This document shows, one piece after another, positions 14,720 to 63,541 of a stretch of DNA of 64,000 bases. The position numbers were made by a program, and so were the translations under genes. The notes under the pieces are model-generated. The model was not told where the DNA came from, searched no databases, and saw only the letters and a list, made by a program, of their open reading frames with translations. Location of the stretch: the IMG/VR virus record IMGVR_UViG_3300031134_000596; one strand, given 5' to 3'. The stretch's first letter is position 1. Every line of letters begins with the position of its first letter. The stretch comes from an uncultured virus (IMG/VR IMGVR_UViG_3300031134_000596) (Duplodnaviria; Heunggongvirae; Uroviricota; Caudoviricetes).

Positions 14720-15484
14720 TTAGAAAAGCTTCAGGAAGTCCTGCTCCATGTAAGCTCGCGTGGCGTCCTTGGACACCCAACGGCTTCGAGTGACAGTCGT
14801 CGGAGCATCAGCAGGGCGACGCACACCTGCAGGAACAGCCTGGGCTGCATCCTGCTCGAACGTCTCCTTGAACGCCACACGACCGTTGAAGAAGCCCTCA
14901 GGAAGCTTCTCGTAAGGCGTACCCTCCAGAAGCCGCAGACGGTCCTTGGAGGAGACACTCATCAGGCTCTTGTGGGAGTGCAGCACGTTAGCTGCCATCG
15001 TCACAGCGTTCTTCTGAGCATCGAAACGACGCCAACGCACGTACTCATCCACCTCGTCCACATCAGCAAGCGTGTGAACACGAGCATCGAACACAGGAAT
15101 CTGACCGACTCCATCAAACTTAAGAGCCTGCATGAACAGAGCAGTCACAGTTGCAGCACCGATGGAAAGCATCTTGTCGACACGACCACCGAACCACATC
15201 TGGCTGTTTTCACCAGCAAGGTCTGAGAAGACGATGCTGATTTCATCCGACTGAGTGTAACCAGCGATGGCTCCAGGGATGGTCGCAGCCATCTTACGGG
15301 TCACTTCGTCCATGACGCCCATGAAGTTCAGGTCGTAAGGCTTCTCGAAACGCTTGGTGAACGTGGAGAAGTTCTTACCGTCAAAACGGATGACAGCGTA
15401 AGTCTTCTCAGGGAGGTAGCGGAAAGAGTCCTTCTCCAGACCCTTGAACTTCACTCCATCAGGGAGCATGTTGTTATCAGACAT
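14720..15484 (-). CDS. thg1: tRNA-His guanylyltransferase Thg1-like (3'-5' polymerase)
   Basis: VIRFDGKNFSTFT, YTQSDEISI, WFGGRVDK, PVFDAR, WRRFDAQKN. Confidence 0.92.
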   Translation of the reverse strand: MSDNNMLPDGVKFKGLEKDSFRYLPEKTYAVIRFDGKNFSTFTKRFEKPYDLNFMGVMDEVTRKMAATIPGAIAGYTQSDEISIVFSDLAGENSQMWFGGRVDKMLSIGAATVTALFMQALKFDGVGQIPVFDARVHTLADVDEVDEYVRWRRFDAQKNAVTMAANVLHSHKSLMSVSSKDRLRLLEGTPYEKLPEGFFNGRVAFKETFEQDAAQAVPAGVRRPADAPTTVTRSRWVSKDATRAYMEQDFLKLF

Positions 15485-15794
15485 TAGCCTTCTCTTCTGT
15501 GTTGCGTGCCATGAGCTGAAGCCATAGCAGGTCATAAGTTCCTGAATCGACAAGCATTCGCTCATCGTTGTTCAAATCGTACACGTAAAACGCTCCGATG
15601 TCCAGCTGCTTGTCTGCAGGGAAAGCGTCATACCATGCAGCAAACTCGTCAAGAGTGTCCCAGCCGTCCAGACCAGGGAACATGCAGCGACCGTTCTCGT
15701 CATTGTCCGTGACGTTTTCGCCGTGAATCTCTTCGTCAAGGTAAGAGTCCCAGCCGGCAGCATAAGCGTAGTAACGCTTCTCATCAGTAGTCAT
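15477..15794 (-). CDS. Hypothetical acidic protein
   Basis: ORF directly after a TTGACA-17-TAATGT promoter, overlapping the thg1 start. Confidence 0.65.
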   Translation of the reverse strand: MTTDEKRYYAYAAGWDSYLDEEIHGENVTDNDENGRCMFPGLDGWDTLDEFAAWYDAFPADKQLDIGAFYVYDLNNDERMLVDSGTYDLLWLQLMARNTEEKANV

Positions 15795-24874: not shown

Positions 24875-24924
24875 CTTAAACAGTAAAGGCAACCCACTAA
24901 CCTGGGTTGCCTTTACTGTTTAAG
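24875..24924. terminator. Bidirectional intrinsic terminator
   Basis: 22-bp inverted repeat between convergent genes. Confidence 0.8.
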
Positions 24925-30881: not shown

Positions 30882-31916
30882 CTACTTGGTCTCAGCGATA
30901 AGTCGTTCATCAACCATCTGGATAATAGGGAAGTTCATGTGGTCCCCTTTTTTGAACTTACCCCATCGCTGGTAGCTTTCATCGCTCTGTGAATAACCTC
31001 TACTGTATTGGCTGTTGAGGTCTTTCCTGTCTGAAGCGAACTCAAAACGCTGTGAACGGCGACTACCTGTGATACGAAACTTCGTGTTACGAGGAAGGAG
31101 TATCTCCTTCTCCAGGGATTGGATGTCTCCTCCTCTGGATTTTTCCTCCGGCTGAAGGGAAGCTCCTTGTTTTGAGAGTATCTCCATGACTACATAACCA
31201 TGGTTTTTGTTCCCACCGTTCCTGTCGTGCATGTGAGCCATGATGAATTCAGGGTCAGCTGTAGTTGACATGAACCCTTTCTCTTTGAACGCTTCTCCTG
31301 TTTTGAAGTACCGTTCGATGTATTCGTTAGGTGACACTCCGGCTGGCACTCTAAAGAAACGGTACAGCTTGCGAGGACCTTCAGGCTCCTTCGCGGAAGC
31401 TAAAGCTTCGTCTAAGTTCTTGATATCCCGGGGAACATTCTCCGCTAAGTCTTCTCGATAGAAAGGATTCTCTCGAATCAGCTCTGGAAGTCCTTTCTTT
31501 CTCAGAACAGTGTTCACTAATTCGAATAAAGTCATTGTGTAGCGTCTTACGCTGTTTGACTGGTCTCGGGTGAGGCTATTAGCCCACTCTTCTTGCTCTT
31601 CAAAAAGCTTAGCTGTGTGGGCAAGACGTTCTTCAGCATCAAGACCAGTTATAGCTTCACGTGATTTCTTACTCAGCAAATCCAGCAGTTCTTGAGGTAC
31701 AGACTTCTGATTCGGCTTCTCCTGGAAAGGTAACGTCTCAGGAAGGTGCTCTCTCACCAAGTCCTTGTGGGCTTCTTTCCAACTCTGGACAGCTTTTTCG
31801 GCAAGACGTTCTTTGTTGTACTCATTGCGATGCTTGTAACGTGCTTTTCTTCTGACATTAGCTATGGCGTCTGCGTATTCACAGCGTTGTCCGCCATCTG
31901 CTTTGGCTTTGCACAT
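30882..31916 (-). CDS. ADP-ribosyltransferase (R-S-E clade, ExE type; VIP2/Alt-like) with N-terminal Cys motif
   Basis: RRYT...F..VN..LR, KLYR, GFMSTT, LEKEILLPRNTKFRI; N-terminal MCKAKADGGQRC. Confidence 0.85.
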   Translation of the reverse strand: MCKAKADGGQRCEYADAIANVRRKARYKHRNEYNKERLAEKAVQSWKEAHKDLVREHLPETLPFQEKPNQKSVPQELLDLLSKKSREAITGLDAEERLAHTAKLFEEQEEWANSLTRDQSNSVRRYTMTLFELVNTVLRKKGLPELIRENPFYREDLAENVPRDIKNLDEALASAKEPEGPRKLYRFFRVPAGVSPNEYIERYFKTGEAFKEKGFMSTTADPEFIMAHMHDRNGGNKNHGYVVMEILSKQGASLQPEEKSRGGDIQSLEKEILLPRNTKFRITGSRRSQRFEFASDRKDLNSQYSRGYSQSDESYQRWGKFKKGDHMNFPIIQMVDERLIAETK

Positions 31917-32144
31917 AGGATTCCTTTTTCTCCGTCTTTTGACATACTCTTTATCGGTCAATTCCTTATGTTTGCAGGGAATTTAGAGGGCTCGATTATG
32001 AAACAATACTGATTATATAGGAACTTTATCTTGACTCCAATCACGCCCATACTTTGCTATAAGTGCATATATGAGTGGTTTTAGATACCCTGGTGCGATC
32101 AGATCAAGACTGGTAGATTGAAGCTCTATGAAGGAGAGAATGCA

Positions 32145-33151: not shown

Positions 33152-33192
33152 CAGTAACGCCGGCACAATTAGTTCATGTGCCGGCGTTACTG
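33152..33192. terminator. Bidirectional terminator
   Basis: 16-bp inverted repeat between convergent genes. Confidence 0.7.
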
Positions 33193-37317: not shown

Positions 37318-38895
37318 ATGCTTAAGCTTCACTCTGTCCTAAAATCTTCCCGTGCCGCCATTGATCTGGCTTCCATCATGGTTGGTGTCATCATCATCGG
37401 CCTCATCGGTGGTGTCATCGCGGCTACCGTTTTTGCTGTCATTCCATGGTCTCAAGACAAAGCAGCGAAACAACAGCTGGAAGCTATTGCTACGGCCGAA
37501 AATGCCCAGTATGGGAAATCCTCCGAAGGTAACAGCAAGCCTTTCTATGGTGACTCTGCGACTTTAGCTGCAGGTGGTTGGTTGCAGCAAGGCGAAAACT
37601 ACTGTGTAGTCACTCCAGATGAAGATAAGCAATCCTACAAAGCAGCTGTCAAATCAGCCTCTGGAAAAGTGTTTGTTTCTACCAACAAAGCCCCTAACCC
37701 TGTCGAAGCAGTGACAGGCGAAACTACTTGCATTGGTGTTGGTCCTGGAACTGGCACCACTAATCCTGCACCAGTGCCGGCTCCAACAACTGCTGTTAGC
37801 TTCCTATCTTCCAGTATGGGAAGCGCTAATCACATGGTCGTAAACAAGAACAATGCGTTGTATTCTTGGGGAACTAACACAGCAGGTCAGCTGGGGGATG
37901 GTACTTTGGTTTCCACTACTCTCCCAGTCAAAAGCTTGGACGGTAAATTCACTCAAATTGCTTTGAGTAAAGACTGGACAGTTGCTTTGCAGGATGATAA
38001 CACTTTATGGGCTTGGGGTAACAACGGTAATGGTTGGTTGAATGCAGGTTCTGTTGGAAAAGTTGTCACTCCCACAAAAGTAACTATTGCTGGTACTCCT
38101 CTTGAAGGAAAAAAGATAAAACAAATTGCAGCTACTCCTAGTTTTTATTACGTACTCACAAGCAATAATGAACTTTACAAATCGACTATTCGCTTCTCCA
38201 GCAAGGTTAGTTTTACAGGAACGGCTTTAGTGAGTACCAACATCACAAAACTTGCTACTGATTCAGATTCTGATGCCTATTTTGTCATTTCATCTGAAGG
38301 AAAACTGTACGCAGGTGGTGAAGGTGGAAACTATTTGCAAGCTGATGGTAGCGGTGATATACACACCGCACCTCTCCACGAAATTGGTCCAGGAACTCAA
38401 CTAGCTGGAAAAACTGTCACGGATATAGCTGTTGCTGGCAATACTGCCCGTGCGCTGACTTCAGATGGTCGTCTCTATGGATGGGGTTACAATAATTTCA
38501 GTGAGATTGGTTTTGGTAGTAGCTATTCCGCGTTAAAGCCGCTGGAAACTCCTTTAACTGGTACGCCTTTAGAAGGTAAAACTATTACCAACATTGCAGC
38601 TGGTTCGAACCATACCTTAGTCGTCACAAGTGAAGGTAAAGTCTATTCAGCTGGTTCCAATGCATTAGGTCAAAGAGGCATTGGAACCGCCACTTCCATC
38701 AATGCTTACATGGCTGTAGCTACTGCCGGAACTCCGATGGATAACCAGAAAATTGTAGCAATTACTGCTGGGAAAAACGTCTCTTACGCGTTGGATTCAA
38801 ACGGTAAATTGTACGGTTGGGGCTCTGGAAGTCAATTAGGTAGTGGTCCTATAGGTATGCAGAAAGCACCTATCGAAATAGCTCTTCCTGAGTAG
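37318..38895 (+). CDS. Pilin-like N-terminus fused to RCC1-repeat beta-propeller
   Basis: AAIDLASIMVGVIIIGLIGGVIAATVFAVIPWSQDKAAKQQL then LYSWG.N..GQLG repeats. Confidence 0.85.
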   Translation: MLKLHSVLKSSRAAIDLASIMVGVIIIGLIGGVIAATVFAVIPWSQDKAAKQQLEAIATAENAQYGKSSEGNSKPFYGDSATLAAGGWLQQGENYCVVTPDEDKQSYKAAVKSASGKVFVSTNKAPNPVEAVTGETTCIGVGPGTGTTNPAPVPAPTTAVSFLSSSMGSANHMVVNKNNALYSWGTNTAGQLGDGTLVSTTLPVKSLDGKFTQIALSKDWTVALQDDNTLWAWGNNGNGWLNAGSVGKVVTPTKVTIAGTPLEGKKIKQIAATPSFYYVLTSNNELYKSTIRFSSKVSFTGTALVSTNITKLATDSDSDAYFVISSEGKLYAGGEGGNYLQADGSGDIHTAPLHEIGPGTQLAGKTVTDIAVAGNTARALTSDGRLYGWGYNNFSEIGFGSSYSALKPLETPLTGTPLEGKTITNIAAGSNHTLVVTSEGKVYSAGSNALGQRGIGTATSINAYMAVATAGTPMDNQKIVAITAGKNVSYALDSNGKLYGWGSGSQLGSGPIGMQKAPIEIALPE

Positions 38896-38899
38896 TAAT

Positions 38900-39799
38900 T
38901 CAGCCCATGTAGTAGATGCTGGCATCATCAAAGTAGGCGATGTGTCCTGGAGAAACACCTTCAGCTCTAATCTGCATACCAATCTTGCTGTAGTTAGCTT
39001 CGTTTACAGTGCCTCTGACCGAAACATACTGCCAGTCACCAGTAGCTTCTACCAGCCCACCACCGGCACCTTCAGAGTAAGGACCTTCGGTTCTAAGAGC
39101 TACATGCCAACTTGTTCCAACTTCAGCTTTGAACCACATTCCTGCAGTGTACGTTCCACCTTTAGTGATTGTGTTCTGCCACACAATTGCACCGTCATAA
39201 GGGTTGATTGTAACAATTTTACGGGAAGTACCTGGAGAGTGTGTGATTGCTTTTTCAGTAGTCACAGTTGGACCGAAGTAGTTCTCCCAGTCAGTTCCTT
39301 TTTCGTAAGTTGGGTCAGCAAACAGGTTACCTGATTTGAAAGGACCCGCTGTTGGCCATGCACAATTTGTTGGGTAATCTGCTGGAGCAGCTGACGGCCA
39401 TGGGGTTGGAACGACCTTAGCTTGGTTAGTTTTGGAAGAAAGGTAGAAAGTTTTTCCTGTTGATGAAGTTTTGAATGCTCCATAGCATTTGTTTTCATCT
39501 GAGAACACTGCAACTTGTGCTGCATTCAAATCCATGAGTTCAGGCAAGACACTTGAGAATCTGCCTTCAGTCAGACCTGAATTAGCACTTTCAGCGATAA
39601 CTACATTCTGAAGCTGCTGTTTCGCTGCGTTATCTTGAGCCCATGGGATGACAGCAAACACAGTAGCAGCGATGACTGCACCGATCAAGCCAATGACGAT
39701 GATACCAACCATGATGGAAGCAAGATCAACAGCAGCTTTACTGCTTTTTAGGACGTTGACAAATGGGTTGTACATAGATTCTCTTTTAGGGGAAGACAT
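38900..39799 (-). CDS. Pilin-like N-terminus fused to a carbohydrate-binding (CBM4/9-like) domain
   Basis: AAVDLASIMVGIIVIGLIGAVIAATVFAVIPWAQDNAAKQQL; NLFADPTYE ... G.TYTAG.W ... WQYV ... YFDDA. Confidence 0.8.
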   Translation of the reverse strand: MSSPKRESMYNPFVNVLKSSKAAVDLASIMVGIIVIGLIGAVIAATVFAVIPWAQDNAAKQQLQNVVIAESANSGLTEGRFSSVLPELMDLNAAQVAVFSDENKCYGAFKTSSTGKTFYLSSKTNQAKVVPTPWPSAAPADYPTNCAWPTAGPFKSGNLFADPTYEKGTDWENYFGPTVTTEKAITHSPGTSRKIVTINPYDGAIVWQNTITKGGTYTAGMWFKAEVGTSWHVALRTEGPYSEGAGGGLVEATGDWQYVSVRGTVNEANYSKIGMQIRAEGVSPGHIAYFDDASIYYMG

Positions 39800-49831: not shown

Positions 49832-49884
49832 GGTTAAATAGTTGTACCCCTGAAATCCACTTTCAGGGGTACAACTATTTAACC
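49832..49884. terminator. Bidirectional intrinsic terminator
   Basis: 24-bp inverted repeat between convergent genes. Confidence 0.8.
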
Positions 49885-58954: not shown

Positions 58955-59097
58955 ACATGAAGAAGGCATACCATGAGCAAGTAAACTGGTATGCCTTCTT
59001 CGTGTTCTTTAGAGTTAACCAACCAAGGAAAGGTTCTAATACCCTTTTCGGTAGAAATGAGCGTTTCTATACAAAAAACGCACTTTATTTCTGTGAA

Positions 59098-60836: not shown

Positions 60837-61016
60837 CTTGAAAGAGGGCTGGAAGTTTTCTCTTCCAGCCCTCTCCTTTTGGAAAAGGAAATGCAACAGC
60901 ATCAAGGATTACGATGCCTAATGTTATACTATCAATTGATTTTCAAAGATTTGATTTTCAGCGATTTTACACCATCAACTGATAAGGTGATTATCACCTG
61001 TTGAAGAAAGAAAAGT

Positions 61017-61608: not shown

Positions 61609-62178
61609 ATGAAGCAACATTTACACCCTGAGACATTCCCTGTCACTCCGTACACTCCTAAAGAGCTGATGGCTTTGGACTGGTTGGAGGAGGAATGGAC
61701 GAACAACCGTCTATTCGCCTGGGACGTACTGAACGATGATGCCAGTGGCTTGTCTCTGCTTGAAAGAGGAGCTGCTCCTCTGATTCCCCTCATCGTAGGT
61801 CTGGACTTGGTTCTTCTTATCCTTGCCCTGCAAGTGCAGATTCCAGTCAACGGAATGGCAGCTTTCACCAGCCCTATTGCTGTGGTTTTGGGTCTTGCCC
61901 TGATTCCTTTCGTATTGCTGGCAGCTAAAGTGAGTCGTGTAGCTAAAAGTCTTCGTAACGCAGCTGACTCTACTATCTTCAGCACTGTCGGTCGTTGGAT
62001 TAGAGCTCGTTATGGTGTATCCATCGACTTCGGAGATAACCTGGCTGACATTCTCAACGAAGAAACCGTAAGGAATGGGAAAAATGAAAACTACTACTTG
62101 GACGCTGTTGTTCGAGGAGGTAAACCTTCGTTGATTGTTCGTCAACGTGATGGTCTCGAAGCACCTGTCCTCATCTAA
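61609..62178 (+). CDS. Membrane protein (2 TM)
   Basis: Two TM then WIRARYGV; SD GGAGG. Confidence 0.6.
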   Translation: MKQHLHPETFPVTPYTPKELMALDWLEEEWTNNRLFAWDVLNDDASGLSLLERGAAPLIPLIVGLDLVLLILALQVQIPVNGMAAFTSPIAVVLGLALIPFVLLAAKVSRVAKSLRNAADSTIFSTVGRWIRARYGVSIDFGDNLADILNEETVRNGKNENYYLDAVVRGGKPSLIVRQRDGLEAPVLI

Positions 62179-62199
62179 TTCGATTAGGAGGGTTGAAAA

Positions 62200-62544
62200 A
62201 TGTATTCTGCTTATGAGGACCTTCAAAACTTGAGGAAAAGCTGGAGAACCAGCAATCCTGAACTGAAGCTGATTCTTTCATTGGAGGGTTCTGTGTTGAC
62301 TCTTCATCTGATTGAGGTCCCTGTCTTTTCCCGACGCCAAGGATACGGCAGTGAGATTATGGAGGAGTTGAGCTGTATCGCAGACCGTCATAACTTGAAG
62401 CTTGTGTGTGAACCTGATGACTCACACGGAACCTCTATGGAGGTTCTTGAGAAGTTCTACTCCCACTACGGGTTTGCATGGTCAGCTGCTGGTCTCATGA
62501 TTCGTGAACCTGCTTATTCGGATTTGTTTGCAACAGCAAGCTGA
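62200..62544 (+). CDS. GNAT family acetyltransferase
   Basis: IEVP..SRRQGYGS (motif A), LEKFYSHYGF. Confidence 0.8.
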   Translation: MYSAYEDLQNLRKSWRTSNPELKLILSLEGSVLTLHLIEVPVFSRRQGYGSEIMEELSCIADRHNLKLVCEPDDSHGTSMEVLEKFYSHYGFAWSAAGLMIREPAYSDLFATAS

Positions 62545-62557
62545 CTGTGCTACAGTT

Positions 62558-62688
62558 CAGGTAACGCCGAAAGAGCCTGCTGCTGGTTAAAGACGCAGCC
62601 CACCTCCACCTGGATAACCAGATGCAAGGTGGGCGTAAGTCTACAAAGCTTTGTAAACCCAGTGTATGCCTTCTTTCGGCGTTACTTG
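62558..62688 (+). ncRNA. Candidate stand-alone rod-shaped ncRNA (about 125 nt)
   Basis: TTGCAA-17-TACAGT promoter immediately upstream; 17-bp closing stem; nested stems; no downstream sense ORF. Confidence 0.6.
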
Positions 62689-62957
62689 TCTAACCAGTCA
62701 ATTTTATCGACATCTGACTGAAGAACAACAGTGTTTCTCATCAGAGGTATCAAATCACTGTATTCTTGCTGGGCTGCATGTGATAAGAACCTCATAGCTG
62801 TGGCGAATCCTGCCATTACTGCTGCGTTTAGTTCCTCTGCTGAGTAGGTTGAGTGCAACATTTTAAGCTTTTCAACGTCATGTTCGAGGAAAGCTTCGTA
62901 AATGCTGAGACCTAAGAGACTATTATCTTGAGCTTGCTGATAATCAGACTTGTTCAT
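62682..62957 (-). CDS. Hypothetical protein
   Basis: SD GAAGGAG. Confidence 0.6.
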   Translation of the reverse strand: MNKSDYQQAQDNSLLGLSIYEAFLEHDVEKLKMLHSTYSAEELNAAVMAGFATAMRFLSHAAQQEYSDLIPLMRNTVVLQSDVDKIDWLDK

Positions 62958-63082
62958 GTGAATCTCCTTCGTATAGTAGTTATATCATAACAGACAGCAG
63001 AGAACAGAACAACAAACGCTAACACCAGGGTGGCCAGACAACAGCCGATATTTTGTAGGTACATGCAGATCGAAAGGCACCC

Positions 63083-63541
63083 ATGGATGACATCATTCAG
63101 TTCACTACTCTTACGCAGTCAATTTTGACTGTTGGGGCTGGAGCTTTAGTCATTCTGTTGATTGCTTCAGCCATCTGGTACTACCTACGTAAACGCAAAA
63201 CAGGGTCAGAAAAGTCCCGTTTTCGTTCAACAATAGTTGGTGTTCTTATCGGCGTAGTGGTACTTGCTGTAACTGTTACCGGCGGGGTGTACCTGAACAA
63301 CACCAGCAACAACAACACTCTTCGTGAAGCTTTAGAGAACCAAGACGTTTCGGTTACTGCAACAGAATTCGAGACCCTCAAAACTGGTCGTACCATAGAA
63401 AAAGGGGATGACACCGTAACTTTGGTACCGCTAGATAACAAATCACAGACTTACGAACTGGTCGTTCTTCCTAAAGATACCAGCGTTGAAGAGCCAGAAG
63501 ACCTTGATGATATCCTCACCCCTGAGGATTCATCAAACTAA
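63083..63541 (+). CDS. Membrane protein (2 TM)
   Basis: SD GAAAGG; upstream GCCGATA. Confidence 0.65.
   Translation: MDDIIQFTTLTQSILTVGAGALVILLIASAIWYYLRKRKTGSEKSRFRSTIVGVLIGVVVLAVTVTGGVYLNNTSNNNTLREALENQDVSVTATEFETLKTGRTIEKGDDTVTLVPLDNKSQTYELVVLPKDTSVEEPEDLDDILTPEDSSN

Follow-up and report, generated by a model that had tools for sequence, protein, structure and literature searches.

A candidate promoter-driven 3'-end small RNA from terminator-type hairpins, predicted to be antisense to a convergent gene of a large mobile element

Genes and features of the locus

The window analysed here, a stretch of 64,000 nt, is part of an IMG/VR record of 149,196 nt with 46% GC (hereafter G000). Two genes converge on a short gap at its positions 62545-62681 (Table 1). 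The plus-strand gene, likely the last of a three-gene operon, encodes a GNAT-like protein that matched phrog_14082 with an E-value of 1.6e-6 and PF13508 with an E-value of 0.0025, below the cut-off. A homologue with 46% identity retains the tail YSDLFA over the region of a -35 box discussed below, with an equal number of residues following it; read from a protein homologue, this retention may be taken as a hint only. For the 91-aa product of the minus-strand gene the searches recovered only members of its own cluster, while its look-alikes in the Atlas are unnamed and mostly come from Actinomycetota or viruses.

The initial annotation had described an ORF-less region followed by a convergent gene, and both statements hold: the two stop codons face each other, and only frames of 12-43 aa lie in the region, among which we found by eye no SD-led or leaderless ORF. 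An inverted repeat, the outer stem of the structure analysed below, starts 14 nt past the GNAT stop codon, and its right arm has 7 nt in common with the end of the 91-aa gene. In one strain the 91-aa protein ends in R, not K (P0014, window 62685-62687); judged from the protein only, one transition at these positions would convert the G-U pair of the outer stem to G-C.

Table 1. Features of the locus and related sites (window coordinates unless another record is named)
Feature	Coordinates	Strand	Remarks
Small GNAT-like gene, 114 aa	62200-62544	+	final codons carry the -35 box; stop 62542-62544
Predicted sigma-A-type promoter	62528-62556	+	-35 TTGCAA 62528-62533, 17-nt spacer, TG 62548-62549, -10 TACAGT 62551-62556
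Left arm of outer 17-bp inverted repeat	62558-62574		terminator-family type
Predicted small RNA, ~121-128 nt	62563-62690	+	5' end 62563-62564, 3' end in U-rich tail past closing stem; placed from leaderless starts and fold
Inner 37-nt hairpin	62598-62634		apical CTGG-ATAA-CCAG at 62610-62621
14-nt palindrome	62642-62655		predicted 4-5-bp side hairpin, no better than chance
Right arm of outer repeat	62672-62688		runs into U-rich tail on +
Gene for small soluble protein, 91 aa	62682-62957	-	function unassigned; stop 62682-62684; faces the GNAT-like gene
Predicted sigma-A-type promoter of the 91-aa gene	62984-63012	-	faces the promoter of the small RNA
CCGATA example sites	63045; 58376; 7249; 37271	+; -; -; +	precede ORFs
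Post-stop hairpin examples	49832-49884; 33152-33192; 24875-24924		
RNase P protein gene	L178:11500-11823	-	PF00825, E-value 1.5e-22

A promoter in the last codons of the GNAT-like gene

The sequence TTGCAA-17-TACAGT with an extended TG, proposed as a promoter in the initial annotation, is present exactly where it was placed, and is absent from the list returned by a generic promoter scan. The corresponding pattern TTG-N17-TGnTAnnnT has 33 matches in G000, compared with a mean of 5.8 expected by chance (12 Markov simulations), and 27 of the 33 precede an ORF start (background 0.30); it is a valid promoter class in G000. The site at 62528 belongs to the six ORF-less matches, a number near the count expected by chance. 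A weight matrix trained on the 27 gene-preceding promoters (training scores 13.8-22.3 bits) gives it 18.0 bits, which is inside the training range and ranks 15 among 298,334 positions in G000; the remaining five ORF-less matches score 9.1-16.4 bits. The locus is real and unusual, and by these scores its predicted promoter is well supported.

At 7 of the 27 gene-preceding sites an ATG lies 7-10 nt past the -10 box. Because we read these as leaderless starts, the predicted transcription start moves from about 62562, as initially suggested, to 62563-62564. It follows that 5 bp at the beginning of the outer stem would lie upstream of the RNA, whose own closing stem would comprise 12 bp.

Two ORF-less matches elsewhere, at window 71500 (+) and G000 29975 (+), score 12.3 and 16.4 bits and may drive short genes or RNAs, "ORF-less" meaning here that no ORF of at least 50 aa follows. 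We did not accept TCGATA near 62710 on the minus strand as a promoter, since TCGATA precedes ORFs at the background rate (8/55). Among hexamers found before genes, CCGATA ranks highest (P 7e-17); 30 of its 38 sites in G000 are followed by an ORF start, with several ATGs 8-12 nt after it and no clear -35 signal. It is likely a second promoter class of the element, and resembles the -10 box of the sigma-28/WhiG type.

Two stems exceed shuffled controls

The arms of the outer repeat pair as initially annotated, with 16 Watson-Crick pairs and 1 G-U pair, and so does the inner stem, where GCCCACCT (62598-62605) faces AGGTGGGC (62627-62634) below the apical CTGG-ATAA-CCAG. The fold of the region has an energy of -64.2 kcal/mol (z-score -6.59) and none of 200 shuffled sequences was equally stable; for the 131 nt at 62558-62688 the z-score is -7.22 on the plus and -7.06 on the minus strand, and for the inner part (62590-62645) it is -6.0. 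Since the energies of the two strands are equal (-64.1 kcal/mol for minus vs -63.5 kcal/mol for plus) and the minus strand is the richer in G-U pairs (5 vs 3), the fold alone cannot assign the strand.

In a linker control, with the outer arms and the inner hairpin kept fixed, 158 of 1000 dinucleotide shuffles were equally stable on the plus strand and 242 of 1000 on the minus strand, and 449 of 1000 had an equal number of left-right pairs. The outer stem and the inner hairpin are therefore the two real stems, as only they beat the controls, the pairing between them being at chance level. Thus, of the nested rod suggested initially, these two stems stand, and the CTGG/CCAG and AGAC/GTCT stems and the side palindrome do not stand out from the linker shuffles; the AGAC and GTCT motifs are present, with GTCT and the palindrome overlapping at 62642. 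Neither a continuous rod nor a three-way junction follows from these controls. In the lowest-energy fold the 5' strand is 4 nt long and there is no bubble, whereas a form in which 11 nt of the 5' strand are open, facing a 3' hairpin, lies 2.8 kcal/mol higher. An HDV-like fold, based on a 7-bp alternative pairing, was weighed by eye and dropped.

A family of post-stop hairpins

Perfect hairpins with arms of 11-24 bp number 54 in G000. Most follow closely on a stop codon, and one is present at 19 of the 42 convergent gene pairs. From their position and tails we infer that the post-stop hairpins are terminators. Many of them have words of 9-12 nt in common. The structure at 62558-62688 shares such words: the outer repeat has 11 and 10 nt in common with hairpins at G000 14797 and 95152, one arm of the hairpin at window 58959-59001 repeats the segment 62664-62675 exactly, and the inner 37-nt hairpin shares one 10-mer with the hairpin at G000 33706. 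Overall, 10-mers of the structure recur in 4 of 51 hairpins, a set that leaves out three short in-gene ones, vs 2 of 2807 random windows. Three IMG/VR loci have similar, terminator-like inner hairpins, a weak observation given that they were picked by the same pattern.

We read the structure at 62558-62688, from its sequence, as nested terminator hairpins. It agrees with the other post-stop hairpins in position, arm length, shared 10-12-mers and the U-rich tail. It differs from them in its loop, which is 97 nt long and structured compared with 3-15 nt, and in the promoter start at its 5' end: a predicted start of this type within 10 nt of the 5' end was found for 1 of 52 hairpins of G000, the one at 62558. 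A loop of 97 nt is unusual for an intrinsic terminator. The initial proposal of an independent, promoter-driven ncRNA is retained in part: the promoter statistics favour a predicted promoter-driven, ORF-less transcript, while "independent" does not suit an RNA whose promoter lies in the last GNAT codons and whose closing stem is apparently a shared terminator.

Conservation among strains

A relative of G000 (L405, contig Ga0308164_10000007, 788,683 nt), 94.4% identical to it over 20 kb, shows no differences at the 137 positions of the gap 62545-62681, in a comparison that yields 756 differences in 5784 third codon positions (13.1%) and 101 in 2988 intergenic sites. If other convergent gaps set the rate (4.8%), such invariance would be improbable (P about 0.001); measured against short intergenic gaps (22/1377 sites differ, 1.6%; P 0.11) it is unexceptional, and the gap 60837-61016 likewise has 0/180 differences. 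In runs X9, X5 and X7 we counted 26, 24 and 27 differences in 62194-62980 and 0 in 62541-62728, and in run X12 none in 62541-62728 among 25 of 41 differences listed. The strain comparisons are not independent because the strains have most of their differences in common. Within the promoter (62528-62556) only the spacer base 62540 varies. The near-identical strains show no variation in the structure and hence none of the covariation suggested initially as a check.

Searches for homologues and known RNA families

The homologue search recommended in the initial annotation yielded no true match outside near-identical strains in any collection searched, the two models applied being effectively single-sequence and hence of low sensitivity. 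The collections comprised phages and plasmids (blastn), 401 Microbacteriaceae genomes (blastn), IMG/VR (five pattern scans, two of which covered 2 and 27 of 64 parts, with matches checked by script, nhmmer or covariance model, and 34 of 120 loci checked for one scan), and, searched with models, 70 genomes of one genus, 151 of the order, 17 picked records and 10 IMG/VR fragments. The best-looking IMG/VR candidate (L222) turned out to be protein-coding, and the DNA downstream of five GTDB homologues of the GNAT-like gene is without such a structure. The segment 62564-62596 matches the end of the host rplC coding sequence at 28/33 positions in 11/401 Microbacteriaceae genomes (E-value about 0.005 each, with about 2 expected at that level). 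We regard this as chance, the match being to a single conserved gene, through a CTG-rich word and with the promoter giving the sense strand; the duplex energy of -64.6 kcal/mol is an uncontrolled figure.

A search of the window and the rest of G000 with Rfam 15 gave 0 matches at the gathering score, and none over the structure at E-values up to 10. This agrees with the initial failure to match SRP, tRNA or known ribozymes, as do an SRP model and ARAGORN (0 tRNA genes in G000): the model of the bacterial small SRP RNA (helix 8 motif; 10/14 controls recovered) reported only a sub-threshold match elsewhere in G000 (E-value 2.4). The models of 6S and 6S-Flavo RNA (4/14 and 0/14 controls past the cut-off) and of Ms1 (no control genome past the cut-off) had no match in G000 at E-values up to 10, and the YrlA model with its tRNA-like domain (no control past the cut-off) had none either. 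Neither the family models nor the linker control thus lend support to the 6S-like RNA polymerase decoy or the Y-RNA-like scaffold considered initially. The Pfam-scanned ORFs of G000, 149 kb of an element of ~788 kb, include no Ro60/Rsr. A retron msr-msd has an adjoining reverse transcriptase gene, and no reverse transcriptase family was found among these ORFs.

A possible antisense 3'-end small RNA

The explanation we put first, tentatively and at somewhat less than an even chance, is a promoter-driven 3'-end small RNA derived from terminator hairpins, which has the terminator of the GNAT operon in common with that operon and is antisense to the 3' UTR of the 91-aa gene. The strong predicted sigma-A promoter in the last GNAT codons would give rise to a small RNA of ~125 nt, ending at the outer stem, the putative terminator of both convergent genes. 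The minus-strand mRNA would read into the structure and end at one of its two stable stems (inner hairpin or outer stem), so that it would overlap the small RNA by 90-130 nt and the RNA would be fully complementary to its 3' UTR; the 91-aa mRNA would then probably be lowered, either through a duplex of the two RNAs that is subject to RNase III-type decay or through convergent transcription. The repeat extends beyond the predicted start, and its 5 upstream bp would serve the mRNAs, not the small RNA, which counts against this reading. As to the origin, terminator hairpins may have become nested and a promoter been gained in the last codons of the upstream gene. The 91-aa gene is the only partner fixed by geometry, and judging from this layout the antisense overlap would probably act on it. 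Strong folding of both strands and apical loops of 4 nt should slow pairing and so speak against the antisense reading, as do the unusual length of the 97-nt loop for an intrinsic terminator and the lack of a homologue or covariation in the collections searched. In two RNA runs, moreover, four short pieces fall in 62652-63218 and none over 62563-62651, a result that weighs little either way.

Small RNAs with internal promoters in 3' regions, as well as overlapping 3' UTRs cut by RNase III, are described in passages of PMC7821165. [quoted passage not shown] DapZ and MicL, however, repress mRNAs in trans, whereas here trans pairing with 211 start regions of G000 is not clearly above shuffles (for three segments, the best duplex was equalled in 4, 20 and 2 of 60 shuffles); in addition, the RNA here is mostly paired and is located on a mobile element, opposite a convergent gene. 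A similar layout is that of the Gram-positive type I antitoxins, with facing promoters and a shared terminator-like stem, here with the predicted 3' overlap of 90-130 nt. The mRNA of a type I toxin has a blocked ribosome site. In contrast, the 91-aa gene has an unpaired SD (the fold of the SD region is -2.1 kcal/mol) and a soluble product with no membrane helix (best 19-residue hydropathy 0.99), while type I toxins are small and hydrophobic according to an excerpt of PMC6563280; the type I toxin features looked for in this protein and its mRNA are therefore absent. PMC8167048 lists RatA/txpA, BsrG/SR4 and par RNAI/RNAII as convergent antitoxin pairs, the last having a shared two-way terminator. 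With a helix-free protein and an unpaired SD, the locus may work as a convergent antisense pair and is not filed as a type I toxin-antitoxin system. The initial idea of an antitoxin RNA beside the GNAT gene survives in its antisense layout, the natural partner being the 91-aa gene, not the GNAT-like gene, and having no type I toxin features.

Alternative explanations

The structure could also be just a nested two-way terminator that stabilises the 3' ends of both convergent mRNAs, the promoter being incidental or its RNA functionless; we consider this unlikely, if the strongest of the alternatives, and it would make the locus an ordinary one. It is favoured by the terminator-family words in both stems, the placement 14 nt past one stop codon and over the other, the chance-level linker pairing, the equal folding of both strands, the lack of a homologue in the collections searched and, weakly, the three IMG/VR loci picked by the same pattern. 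The rank and exact placement of the promoter argue against it, as do the 137 unchanged nucleotides, while other terminator hairpins need only 30-56 nt. Markedly less probable is a protein-binding decoy, notably a miniature RNA polymerase ligand of the 6S/Ms1 type with a closing stem, an 11-nt open strand and a short apical arm. The resemblance to 6S (RF00013), 6S-Flavo (RF01685) and Ms1 (RF02566) RNAs consists of the paired 5' and 3' ends, the irregular rod and the near-optimal 11-nt open form with a 3' hairpin, and the small cost of that form (2.8 kcal/mol), the whole-length invariance and the lack of a trans target clearly above shuffles in the start regions of the element are in its favour; B. 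subtilis 6S-1, moreover, carries a 3' bubble hairpin and remains functional when truncated to 78 nt (PMC8876501). However, the best fold is bubble-free with a 4-nt 5' strand and nothing in the data favours the open form, its interior is not above shuffles, the three models have no match at E-values up to 10, and 131 nt is short compared with about 200 nt for 6S (excerpts of PMC8876501 and PMC9130861) and about 300 nt for Ms1, which needs its bubble (excerpts of PMC4191392 and PMC9130861). A still slightly more doubtful version has such a 6S/Ms1-like decoy assembled anew from nested terminator hairpins and retuning the transcription of an Actinobacteria host. Should the RNA bind RNA polymerase, a phylum that is without 6S RNA according to a passage of PMC9130861 would have a 6S-like regulator.

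About as improbable as the decoy in general is a longer, excludon-like plus-strand transcript that runs through the structure, covers the whole 91-aa gene in antisense and continues into the genes from 63083, with the fold as its 5' leader. Two RNA runs provide four pieces (62652-62802, 62933-63083, 62968-63170 and 63068-63218), all downstream of 62563 and one of them (62933-63083) spanning the divergent gap, and no strict sigma-A promoter lies on the plus strand between 62528 and 63550. On the other hand, the pieces have a depth of 2-3, are strandless and without ends and may be DNA, the gene at 63083 has its own CCGATA-type site at 63045, and the closing stem has a terminator-like tail. Contigs of the RNA runs leave 62563-62651 (X23, X24) or 62094-62680 (X22) uncovered, and contigs cannot show absence. 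An element acting at the DNA level (a miniature inverted-repeat element, a single-strand origin, a fold-back promoter or an operator palindrome) would fit the 17-bp terminal repeat, the 14-bp palindrome and the strand-symmetric fold (DNA fold of -33.4 kcal/mol on both strands), yet we judge it highly improbable: it has a single copy in 149 kb and no visible flanking direct repeat, is present in all four strains compared and, unlike a fold-back promoter, points into no gene.

If the preferred explanation, an antisense small RNA at the 3' end of the GNAT operon, is true, the locus would be a clear case in which terminator hairpins became a small RNA gene through promoter gain in the last codons of the upstream gene, on a giant mobile element. 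It would then bear on the origins of sRNAs, with a reach limited to one lineage so far.

The element and its probable host

Members of the clusters of the GNAT-like and the 91-aa protein were found on contigs of 782,330 and 788,683 nt; together with the 94.4% identity of L405, this leads us to regard G000 as a fragment of a giant element of ~788 kb. A literature search retrieved nothing specific on this element or on such an RNA. The genes of G000 include those for a thymidine kinase, Thg1, an RNA ligase, the RNase P protein and a pyrimidine-dimer glycosylase. No capsid or terminase family was matched in its 149 kb, so the element is called "phage-like" because of its gene content and its IMG/VR classification. 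If the element is a phage, its 788,683 nt would exceed the 735 kb that PMC13282480 gives for certain phage genomes among the largest. On plasmids, the LCP gene has its nearest matches in Microbacteriaceae, and the metagenome runs in which the element is best represented come from the phyllosphere. The hosts are probably plant-surface bacteria, putatively Microbacteriaceae judging from these two observations.

Neither RNase P RNA nor tRNA was found in the 149-kb fragment that bears the RNase P protein gene. The occurrence of Thg1 (window 14720-15565), the RNA ligase and two HAD_SAK_2 genes with the RNase P protein suggests an RNA repair set. The RCC1-repeat proteins of G000 have a common pilin-like N-terminus; in nearly invariant form it is common to five proteins (window 37318-38895 and 38900-39799; L180:7885-10750; L183:4454-6196) and occurs as well on Micrococcales plasmids and contigs that are large and high in GC. 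The GTDB and plasmid carriers of this marker were rejected as relatives, as with 56-66% GC they are probably a different kind of element. PF03496 (ADP-ribosyltransferase) domains are present in two genes (window 30882-31961; L180:16693-17469), and a similar Cys/His motif opens several ORFs.
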